Shown: in pieces, positions 1,119-40,206 of the stretch
Layout of the letters: each line of letters begins with the position of its first letter
Numbering within the stretch: position 1 is the stretch's first letter
Source of the DNA: Candidatus Nomurabacteria bacterium
GTDB lineage: Bacteria; Patescibacteriota; Minisyncoccia; Phycocordibacterales; UBA9973
DNA: 64,000 bases
Direction of reading: 5' to 3'
Assembly: GCA_026395995.1 (NCBI GenBank)
Contig: JAPLXQ010000010.1
Span: forward strand, 218,179 to 282,178
The notes under the pieces: model-generated
Seen by the model: the letters and a program-made list of their open reading frames with translations, nothing else
Told to the model about the DNA's origin: nothing
Databases searched by the model: none
Translations under genes and position numbers: made by a program

Positions 1119-1255
1119 TTTTTTTGTGTTTTACTTTTTTTGTCTACTCTTTAGATTTTCGACTTCCTCTTATTTACCGAACAAACTAATGTAATAATTA
1201 GCTCGGTAAATAAGGAGAATAGTAAAACAAATTTCAAGTAACATTAACTCTGTAA

Positions 1256-36281: not shown

Positions 36282-36950
36282 GTGGGTTTTATTATGAAAA
36301 AAGATTTACAACAAAAAGCAAAGAAATTAAGAGCTGAGGGTTATTCAATTAAAGAACTTCAGAATATTTTAAATGTATCAAAGAGTACAATTTCTTTATG
36401 GGTAAGAGATATTGAACTTTCTAAAGATGCTCAAATACGCATTCAAAATAATTACACAAAAGGTCAATTGGCTTCTCAAAAAACTATACAAAAACAAACT
36501 CAAGAAAAAAATATTTTAGCTGATAGTTTCGCAGAAAATATTATCAAACAAATAGATATTTCTTTTGAAAATTCATTAGTATTGTGTTCGATGATATATC
36601 AGTGTGAGGGTAGTAAAAACATAAAAGATTCTGTTACTTTTACAAATTCTGATCCAGCTCTAATAAAGAATTTCTTGTTCTTTTTTAGAAAAAGTTTTCA
36701 TTTAGATGAAAGTAAATTCAGAGTTTTAATGCACTTACATAGTTATCATAATGAAAATACGCAAAAGAAATTTTGGTCTAATATTACAAATATTCCCACA
36801 AAAAATTTTTTAAAAACTTTCAATAAAGAAAGTACTGGTTCTTATAAAAAAGAAGGGTATCAAGGATGTATTCAAGTTCGTTATCGTGATGTTGTAATGG
36901 GTAGAAAAATTCAAGCGGTTGCAAAAAAGTTTATGGAAAGGTATAAATAG
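36282..36950 (+). CDS. HTH-domain protein with putative single-motif LAGLIDADG-like endonuclease domain (paralog A)
   Basis: N-terminal HTH (KKLRAEGYSIKELQNILNVSKSTISLWV); core LVLCSMIYQCEGSK...NSDP...FLFFFRKSF is homologous to 61541-62167 and resembles LAGLIDADG helix plus beta-sheet. Ends 8 nt before tRNA-Trp. Confidence 0.4.
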   Translation: MGFIMKKDLQQKAKKLRAEGYSIKELQNILNVSKSTISLWVRDIELSKDAQIRIQNNYTKGQLASQKTIQKQTQEKNILADSFAENIIKQIDISFENSLVLCSMIYQCEGSKNIKDSVTFTNSDPALIKNFLFFFRKSFHLDESKFRVLMHLHSYHNENTQKKFWSNITNIPTKNFLKTFNKESTGSYKKEGYQGCIQVRYRDVVMGRKIQAVAKKFMERYK

Positions 36951-36957
36951 TATGCAC

Positions 36958-37028
36958 GGGCCTATAGTTCAGTGGTAGAATAAACGTCTCCAACACGTTT
37001 GACCGGGGTTCGAATCCTCGTGGGCCCG
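36958..37028 (+). tRNA. tRNA-Trp (anticodon CCA)
   Basis: Acceptor gggccta/tgggccc, loop ctCCAac. Confidence 0.75.
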
Positions 37029-37051
37029 CAAAAATTTGATATACTAGTTAC

Positions 37052-38892: not shown

Positions 38893-39022
38893 TTAATAGT
38901 CTTGAAAAATCATTACATTTATGATAATCTTTGTTTATTGGTGTGTTTGTCGGCGTAGTTGTTTTGGTATATAACATTAAATACTAAACATACGTTGCTT
39001 AAAAATATAAATAGGTTTTCAT

Positions 39023-39095
39023 GTCGGCGTAGCTCAGTTGGTAGAGCATAGCACTCATAAAGCTAAGGTCACAGGTTCAATCCCTGTCGCCGACA
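39023..39095 (+). tRNA. tRNA-Met or Ile2 (anticodon CAT; elongator-type)
   Basis: Acceptor gtcggcg/cgccgac, loop ctCATaa; lacks initiator features. Confidence 0.7.
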
Positions 39096-39154
39096 CAAAT
39101 TATAAGAAGTATATAGGGTAGTATATATTACTGTCACCATGATATAATATATAG

Positions 39155-39826
39155 GTGCCAGTCTATAAAAAGGTAAATAAAGATTTTTTTAAAAAATGGT
39201 CACCTGAAATGGCTTATGTTTTAGGTTTTTTATTTGCTGATGGAAATATTGTTCATACAAAAAGAAATACTTGGTTTTGGTCTTTACAAATTACCGATAA
39301 GGATATTTTAATAAAGATAAAAAAAGAAATTAATTCATCACATAAGGTTTCGTTTAAAAAGAAGGTTTTAAATAATAAACAGTTGTATCGTTTACAGATT
39401 GGAAGCAAAGAAATGTGTGAAGATTTAATTAAATTAGGTTTAACTCCACAAAAAAGTAAAACAATGATATTTCCACAAGTTCCAGAAAAATATTTTTCTG
39501 ATTTTTTGCGTGGTTATTTTGATGGAGATGGTGGAGTTTGGTTTGGTTTAAAAAATAAAAAAAATATTAATCAATCTTATGTAATTAATGTTTGCTTTAC
39601 TTCAGGTAGTAAAGATTTTTTAATCTTCCTGAGAGGTATTTTGAATAAAAAATCTATTTTAGGTGGTTCTTTGGTAGAAAAAGAAAGAGGGTTTGATTTA
39701 AAATATAGTATCAAAAATTCTTTGATTTTATATAAAATAATGTATAATAGTAATGTTCTCAAAAATAACCTGTTTTTAGAAAGAAAAAGAGCTATTTTTG
39801 AGAAGTTTATATGTTTGCGATCGTAG
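39155..39826 (+). CDS. LAGLIDADG homing endonuclease (double-motif, single-chain type)
   Basis: Two motifs: LGFLFADGNI and LRGYFDGDGGVWF. The stop codon overlaps the first 10 nt of the intron-containing tRNA. Confidence 0.7.
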   Translation: MPVYKKVNKDFFKKWSPEMAYVLGFLFADGNIVHTKRNTWFWSLQITDKDILIKIKKEINSSHKVSFKKKVLNNKQLYRLQIGSKEMCEDLIKLGLTPQKSKTMIFPQVPEKYFSDFLRGYFDGDGGVWFGLKNKKNINQSYVINVCFTSGSKDFLIFLRGILNKKSILGGSLVEKERGFDLKYSIKNSLILYKIMYNSNVLKNNLFLERKRAIFEKFICLRS

Positions 39827-40130
39827 CTCAACTGGTTAGAGCACCCGCCTGTAGATTCGTGCAGCTTTCTGTCGAAATGGCAGATTGAAACTCTTTGGGA
39901 TATCGGTGAAGGCTAAGTTTGCCGTTTTGGTGAATATGCGAATACCGAGGGAACCCTTCCACATTTTTACTTTATAATAAATAAGTAAAGAGAAGGGGCG
40001 CCGTAGAGACTAGATACCGAAGCACCTAAATTCATTTTAATGAACACGGTGAAGATATAGTCCACGCCTTTATGAAAATATTGGATTTAGTGCACGTGGG
40101 AGGTTGCCGGTTCAAGCCCGGTCGATCGCG
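39817..40130 (+). tRNA. tRNA-Asp (anticodon GTC) interrupted by a group I-like intron; exons 39817-39852 and 40093-40130
   Basis: The exons assemble into a cloverleaf with acceptor gcgatcg/cgatcgc, D-arm gctcaactggttagagc, anticodon stem cccgc/gtggg, loop ctGT|Cac, discriminator G; the intron sits between anticodon positions 35 and 36. Confidence 0.6.
39853..40092 (+). other. group I-like intron (about 240 nt) within the tRNA-Asp anticodon loop
   Basis: The 5-prime splice site follows U and the intron ends in G; gtgcagc can pair with exon ccugu (P1); P7 halves AGACTAg... and AAGATATAGTCc match the conserved R/S elements; size matches known bacterial tRNA group I introns. Confidence 0.6.
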
Positions 40131-40206
40131 CAAATGAAAAACACCTATTTAAGTATAGGTGTTTTTCTGTATAGTGATTGGATAGGAGAACTGGTATAAT
40201 CATTTT

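Follow-up and report, generated by a model that had tools for sequence, protein, structure and literature searches.

How a bacterium is to obtain its aspartate transfer RNA (tRNA) from a gene that lies in two pieces is the question raised by one locus of Candidatus Nomurabacteria bacterium, at positions 39817-40130 of a 64,000-nucleotide (nt) stretch of assembly GCA_026395995.1 (contig JAPLXQ010000010.1, positions 218,179 to 282,178 of the forward strand; the whole stretch is called the window and is numbered from its first letter). An original prediction, made by a model from the letters, had described two tRNA halves roughly 240 nt apart and a group I-like intron between them in the anticodon loop. 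The locus is very probably a functional tRNA-Asp(GUC) gene in which a group I intron without an open reading frame (ORF) separates U35 from C36 of the anticodon; the halves are those that were predicted, and the insert measures exactly 240 nt. Default ARAGORN called 12 tRNAs in the 64-kb window, the split tRNA-Asp not being among them, and called no second tRNA-Asp within it. The gene consists of the following parts.

39817-39852 (+): 5' exon of tRNA-Asp(GUC), positions 1-35 with U35 at 39852; 36 nt, 3' end ...CCUGU
39853-40092 (+): group I intron, 240 nt, without an ORF; full-length RF00028 match, covariation in a 54-sequence alignment (A1), 81% identity to the published intron of GCA_023898525.1
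40093-40130 (+): 3' exon, from C36 to the discriminator G73 at 40130; 38 nt, beginning CACGUGGG, CCA not encoded

Joining the exons gives 74 nt that rebuild, as had been claimed, a cloverleaf with the discriminator G and the identity Asp(GUC), and the loop CUGU|CAC places the insertion between anticodon nucleotides 35 and 36. Read by eye, the acceptor stem is GCGAUCG/CGAUCGC, the D stem GCUC/GAGC, the anticodon stem CCCGC/GUGGG with loop CUGUCAC, and the T arm GCCGG-UUCAAGC-CCGGU; the acceptor and anticodon stems are reproduced by a free-energy fold. The spliced form also aligns unbroken over the junction to intron-less tRNA-Asp genes, at 95% over 64 nt in locus L103 and at 91% over 70 nt in locus L134.

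The group I character of the insert is borne out by a covariance model. In a scan of 391 nt (39780-40170) with laxer filters, RF00028 (Intron_gpI) matches 39851-40084 over model positions 1-253 of 253, with 49.8 bits and an E of 6.8e-12 at a gathering score of 50; the match is genuine but borderline for routine annotation, and a whole-window Rfam scan at the gathering score returns tRNAs only. The two halves of P7, the presumed guanosine-binding helix, are found as predicted, AGACTAG at 40007-40013 and AAGATATAGTCC at 40052-40063.

Relatives were collected by a DNA pattern scan of one genome per GTDB species, in which the P7 3' strand had to be followed by G + CACG and then by the T arm. The scan yielded 55 loci, and 53 of these carry a complete split tRNA-Asp(GUC) interrupted at the same 35/36 site by introns of 198-274 nt. 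Their hosts are nearly all metagenome-assembled genomes (MAGs) of Patescibacteria (Saccharibacteria, Paceibacteria, Kaiser-, Harrison-, Zambryski- and Nomurabacteria), and with the window they make up the 54 sequences of A1. The 5' exon is kept across the 53 loci, both exons of locus L018 are identical to those of the window, and the pairs of the anticodon stem covary across the intron (columns 1-4 with 341-344 of the RNAalifold alignment). The introns closest to that of the window are those of L024 (Paceibacterota, 90%) and L026 (88%), both from Patescibacteria MAGs, as are the closest relatives of the exons and of a LAGLIDADG endonuclease gene situated just upstream. The G+C content of the window is ~0.32, and its proteins were found in the Logan assemblies SRR20698644 and SRR20698641 only. 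When the flanking genes of the window were compared with the fetched loci, only the module from tRNA-Met to tRNA-Asp and one distant gene matched.

Two of the relatives stand apart by their labels. L019 (CAYMRP010000001.1) and L022 (JBLHGD010000003.1) are MAGs labelled as Gammaproteobacteria/Azotimanducaceae that carry the same module of LAGLIDADG gene and split tRNA-Asp, with the upstream tRNA-Met also present in L022 and none found by ARAGORN in L019; mis-binning or horizontal transfer could account for this. Among the fetched loci, L070 (~1480-1780) and L118 (~2260-2340) show one split and one intact tRNA-Asp with an unusual T arm (GUGGGGUCAGCACCCAU or GUGGGGGCAGCACCCAU) in which GGUUC, normally present, is missing, and the intact tRNA-Asp of this pair was not called by ARAGORN.

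The fold of the intron was drawn by hand, helices P1-P9, from the window sequence, and its pairs were then counted in A1. The elements of the drawing, together with the terminal guanosine (ωG), are listed below.

39849-39864 (+): P1, CUGU and the intron A (39849-39853) with UGCAG (39860-39864); CG, UA, GC and UG invariant in 54/54
39868-39884 (+): P2 hairpin UCUGUC/GGCAGA, loop GAAAU (GAAA in most relatives); double changes in all 6 pairs, also found by RNAalifold
39893-39898 (+): P3 5' strand CUUUGG, partner 40017-40022; 5/6 pairs covary, 99.4% of cells paired
39903-39948 (+): P4 (39903-39908 with 39943-39948) around P5/P5a (39912-39939); one P4 pair UA 28 / AU 26, P5 covaries
39949-40002 (+): P6, P6a and P6b; GG/CC pairs invariant, P6a pairs covary
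39964-39991 (+): P6b, an A+U-rich extension common to the window and L024 only
40006-40012 (+): P7 5' strand G-A(bulge)-GACUA, partner 40058-40063; six pairs invariant in 54/54
40017-40022 (+): P3 3' strand CCGAAG, which with P7 makes the core pseudoknot; from the A1 pair counts
40023-40051 (+): P8 (CACC.../...GGUG) with a receptor-like internal loop CCUAA..; 3/4 basal pairs covary, 98.6% of cells paired
40052-40063 (+): joining region J8/7 (AAGAUA) and P7 3' strand (UAGUCC); mostly invariant, RF00028 consensus GAAGAUAUAGUC matched
40064-40091 (+): P9.0 (ACG 40064-40066 with AGU 40089-40091) around P9 (40067-40084, loop GAAA); 6/7 P9 pairs covary
40092 (+): ωG at the 3' splice site; G in 54/54, the two preceding bases in the covarying P9.0

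Standard pairs fill 95.0% of the cells of A1; shuffling gives 86.1%, and sliding the partners lowers the figure to 35-44%. Both sides have changed in 31 of the 53 pairs, and 500 shuffles did not once match what was observed on any of five measures. Covariation is strong in P2, P3, P5, P6a, P8, P9 and P9.0 and in the one P4 pair, with P7 and basal P6 invariant. Independently of the drawing, RNAalifold recovers the anticodon stem, P1, P2, P3, P4, P5, P6, P8, P9 and most of P9.0, and it shows the distal stem of P8 to covary as well. Columns A208, G210-A213 and T214-C219 of A1, which make up J8/7 and the P7 3' strand, are invariant apart from the interposed A209 (at least 90% conserved), and the P7 5' strand agrees with the RF00028 consensus AGACUA. 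All invariant positions of the family, and all those conserved to at least 90%, are kept in the window, its sole departure being the P6b insertion. Folded simply by free energy, the unspliced precursor takes a shape that is not of group I type, at a modest z-score of -2.8, and this fold was set aside.

Loops L2 and L9 are of the GAAA type, and the motifs GCUAAG/UAUGC in P5 and CCUAA../..GG in P8 resemble, by comparison with the known motif, 11-nt tetraloop receptors. Two GAAA loops with receptors are presumably a feature of the Azoarcus structure as well. No P7.1 or P7.2 was seen in the intron, where J7/3, at 4 nt, leaves no room for them. As a separate observation, the P2 5' strand CUGUC (39868-39872) is identical in sequence to the ligated junction CUGU|C and could rival the exon in pairing with the guide sequence or with its look-alike GGCAG (39880-39884); since P2 covaries freely in the relatives, the identity is probably a coincidence.

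The splice sites are set by features that hardly vary. The insert begins after a U and ends in G, as had been noted, and both are invariant in the 54 sequences. The internal guide sequence had been proposed as gcagc (39861-39865) pairing with exon ccugu; four base pairs of CUGU with GCAG stand, including the U·G wobble, but the fifth position would be a C·C mismatch. A fifth pair is instead formed by the first intron base, A39853-U39860, which covaries (AU 50, CG 3, GU 1). The wobble U39852·G39861, that is U35·G, is the sole wobble in P1 and is UG in 54/54. On the 3' side, CGU at 39858-39860 can pair in the window with exon A+2, C+3 and G+4 to form P10.

The fold and the splice-site determinants are read from sequence, homology and covariation; the chemistry is drawn by analogy with group I introns in general and with a published homologue that splices in vitro. 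A precursor would be transcribed, probably with the upstream tRNA-Met and LAGLIDADG gene, and the intron would fold to its P1-P9 core, in which the guide GCAG (39861-39864) would pair with exon CUGU and the U35·G wobble would mark the 5' splice site. A free guanosine held in P7 would attack after U35; G40092, placed by P9.0, would then take the same site, and the 3'-OH of U35 would attack after G40092. Ligation of U35 to C36 would thereby restore the anticodon GUC. The GAAA-type loops L2 and L9 would probably dock in the receptor-like motifs of P8 and P5, stabilising the fold. Guanosine-dependent self-splicing of the window intron is thus a prediction, drawn from its family and from a 58%-identical homologue that splices in vitro.

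That homologue belongs to a class described recently. Group I introns at 35/36 of Patescibacteria tRNA-Asp(GUC) and tRNA-Asn(GUU) were published by Nakagawa et al. (bioRxiv 2025, 10.1101/2025.07.03.662931; mSystems 2026, PMC13011429); one Asn and one Asp intron self-spliced precisely in vitro, and ligation was lost when ωG was changed to C (PMC13011429). The 35/36 site is enriched in Patescibacteria, and covariance models assigned the introns to subgroup IA, none to IC (PMC13011429). In an earlier survey, the tRNA/site classes had grown in number from 4 to 21 (Williams, bioRxiv 2020, 10.1101/2020.01.27.920355). The statement in the original prediction that such introns are unknown for tRNA-Asp is therefore out of date, since 35/36 introns of Patescibacteria tRNA-Asp and tRNA-Asn were in print with in vitro splicing (PMC13011429), and the window intron is a further member of this recently published tRNA-Asp class.

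Three Asp introns are given in Table S3 of Nakagawa et al. (mSystems 2026), and the window intron is 81% identical to that of Paceibacteria GCA_023898525.1 (218 aligned positions) and 58% and 56% identical to two from Microgenomatia. With the first it shares the tRNA, the 35/36 site and the cores …GUGCAGCUUU…, GAUAUCGGUGAAGGCUAAG, GAAUACCGAGGGAACC, CCGUAGAGACUAGAUACCG and AAGAUAUAGUCCACGCC; the genomes differ, and P6b is extended and P8 short in the window intron, whereas P8 carries a long extension in that of GCA_023898525.1. The intron that self-spliced in vitro, from Microgenomatia GCA_001029755.1, likewise shares the tRNA and site, U(-1), ωG, the absence of an ORF and a similar size (196 nt), but it has other P4-P6 and P7 flanks (…GUAGAGACUAUAUACC…, GAUAAGAUAGUCC). 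As it is only 58% identical, the experiment backs the class and not the exact sequence of the window. The classical bacterial tRNA group I introns are comparable as well, being small ORF-less ribozymes that follow a U in the anticodon loop and share P7 and J8/7 sequences; unlike the window intron at 35/36, they belong to subgroup IC3 and interrupt tRNA-Leu(UAA) at 34/35, tRNA-fMet at 33/34, and tRNA-Arg(CCU) and Azoarcus tRNA-Ile at 36/37.

The alternatives to a self-sufficient intron in a working tRNA-Asp gene begin with the gene next to it, which overlaps the 5' exon.

39023-39096 (+): tRNA-Met(CAU), the conserved upstream neighbour in the order tRNA-Met, LAGLIDADG gene, tRNA-Asp; from ARAGORN and the fetched loci
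39155-39826 (+): free-standing, double-motif LAGLIDADG endonuclease gene, 223 codons, start codon uncertain; PF14528 E 6.5e-8, PDB profile 2dch E 2.6e-8

The LAGLIDADG motifs read VLGFLFADG and LRGYFDGDG, and 2dch is the best of several PDB profile matches of the protein. The gene lies outside any intron or intein, as no intron-like RNA surrounds it; no RNA family other than tRNA-Met was found in 38950-39860. An improbable reading makes the intron dependent on this protein, which would act as a maturase or as an endonuclease cutting the intron-less anticodon site. Of the 55 genome loci, at least 35 do have a homologous gene (37-67% identical) in the same position, immediately upstream of their split tRNA-Asp, other loci having truncated or broken copies, and the catalytic-motif residues D29 and D125 are both invariant (105/105). 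The arrangement recalls the 'collaborative homing' of phages, in which free-standing homing endonuclease genes lie beside intron-containing genes: here too, an endonuclease gene lies outside an ORF-less group I intron, within ~40 nt of it. However, the enzyme here is of the LAGLIDADG type, and its relatives are found mostly beside intron-less tRNA-Asp. Metagenome contigs were searched with an alignment of the protein (A2), giving at least 557 relatives; among the best 80, which were placed, ~57 immediately precede an intact tRNA-Asp(GUC), ~15 precede a split one and a few lie beside tRNA-Cys or tRNA-Val. Relatives stand upstream of tRNA-Asp at the same spot in more than 100 loci, mostly intron-less. 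The gene therefore goes with the 5' flank of tRNA-Asp rather than with the intron, and the protein tolerates an anticodon site that is not interrupted; an obligatory partnership was rejected on this ground. For the same reason the enzyme presumably does not target the site of intron insertion, and cutting of the intron-less anticodon site by the endonuclease is unlikely, judging from the sequences compared. Some loci with a deleted or broken gene (L018, L006, L013) moreover carry the intron, and a homologous intron splices protein-free in vitro (PMC13011429).

Set against a functional, self-splicing intron are several points that come from the intron itself and from the reach of the data. The RF00028 score falls 0.2 bits below the Rfam gathering score, and whole-window (64 kb) Rfam scans miss the intron both at the gathering score and at E <= 0.01. 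P1 is short, with four exon pairs and one more; P10 is possible in only 30 of the 54 sequences; because P7 does not vary, what speaks for it is conservation and not covariation; in the window, P9 contains two U·U mismatches and P9.0 only 2 base pairs. Finally, the 64 kb covered are a part of the genome, and a second, intact tRNA-Asp may lie elsewhere in it. Together with the P8 receptor variant CACGG in place of UAUGG, the sub-threshold score, the P9 and P9.0 defects and the limited coverage would suit a decayed intron that no longer splices, leaving a tRNA pseudogene here and a second tRNA-Asp gene elsewhere; this is quite improbable. As mentioned, the invariant and highly conserved positions of the family are all kept, and both exons are undamaged, with the same sequence as in L018. 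The mismatches also recur, the P9 variant CCUUUAU...AUAUUGG being found again in several other loci, and a copy with an intron and a copy without one are, for the same anticodon, rarely found in one genome (PMC13011429). A working split gene is accordingly still the preferred reading of the locus.

The boundaries of the same intron could also be set two bases earlier, after U33 and up to G40090, which would give a tRNA-Ala(UGC) with an intron at 33/34. Either choice follows a U and ends in G, and exactly this misannotation of tRNA-Asp genes has been reported, as ARAGORN and tFind sometimes call them tRNA-Ala(UGC) with an intron at 33/34 (PMC13011429). This reading is very unlikely indeed: U33 pairs with A in P1 (UA 54/54) and the U·G wobble stands at U35 only, G40090 sits in a covarying P9.0 pair (CG 40 / UA 8 / UG 6) in front of the invariant ωG, and these features taken together exclude it. 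G73 is present in 54/54 split genes and the alanine determinant G3:U70 in 0/54, it is the spliced Asp form that matches intron-less tRNA-Asp genes, and the sequenced spliced product of a homologue is the 35/36 form (PMC13011429). A protein-spliced bulge-helix-bulge intron of the archaeal/eukaryotic kind, or a chance insertion of unrelated DNA, has nothing but the anticodon-loop location in its favour and, given the full-length group I model match, the covarying group I helices and the bacterial relatives, can be dismissed.

The value of the finding is practical, the novelty of the intron being low. As the only tRNA-Asp in the window escapes both default ARAGORN and routine Rfam annotation, an essential tRNA would be counted as missing from such genomes, and this annotation gap is the point of the 2026 paper (PMC13011429). 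The three published tRNA-Asp cases are extended here to 53 species-level genomes and ~15 metagenome loci, and a covariation-tested secondary structure is now given for the Paceibacteria-type intron. Directly 3' of the tRNA lies one further feature.

40137-40166 (strand not assigned): terminator-like hairpin (AAAAACACCUAU-loop-AUAGGUGUUUUU), recognised by eye

Two weak Rfam matches align it merely as a generic hairpin, and a promoter/terminator consensus scan gave nothing above background near the split tRNA gene and did not list it.

The very widespread LAGLIDADG neighbour is a side observation that may bear on the movement of these introns and tRNA loci; the 2026 paper sought endonuclease genes inside introns only and does not mention the adjacent gene (PMC13011429). 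Its stop codon TAG coincides with nucleotides U8-A9-G10 of tRNA-Asp, and most copies terminate at this tRNA UAG as well. The broken or deleted copies in some loci would fit, short of proof, a selfish element. When mapped on a rough neighbour-joining tree of the protein with 93 taxa, presence or absence of the intron switches at least 21 times, where shuffling gives a mean of 31 and a minimum of 22; in the subset not selected for the intron, there are 10 changes for 14 intron-bearing taxa (shuffled mean 12.8). The intron is thus patchy relative to the tree of its neighbour, which fits repeated gain or loss.

Hitch-hiking of the intron on endonuclease-driven gene conversion is a possible source of this pattern. 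In its full form, which is offered tentatively and is rather doubtful, the LAGLIDADG gene would be an active homing endonuclease that targets endonuclease-free tRNA-Met/tRNA-Asp junctions, with repair co-converting ~300 base pairs, so that the ORF-less 35/36 intron would be spread or erased along with it. If true, this would explain the scatter of the intron across the endonuclease tree, and it would speak against the published inference of little mobility for tRNA introns without an internal endonuclease gene. As a corollary, the RNase P cut at the tRNA 5' end would strip the endonuclease of its stop codon, tying its expression to tRNA processing.

A second ORF beside a tRNA is found in the window at 36282-36950 (+), with 222 codons and weak helix-turn-helix Pfam matches, ending 8 nt before tRNA-Trp (36958-37029). 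Relatives 26-32% identical to it are present in several fetched Patescibacteria loci, and it may be another tRNA-flanking mobile gene; that it is a paralogue of the LAGLIDADG gene was rejected (hhalign probability 0.25). Far from the split gene, at 1141-1172 (-), the Rfam DUF805b RNA (RF02914) is matched just below threshold, scoring 34.9 bits where the gathering score is 35.6, with an E of 4e-6.

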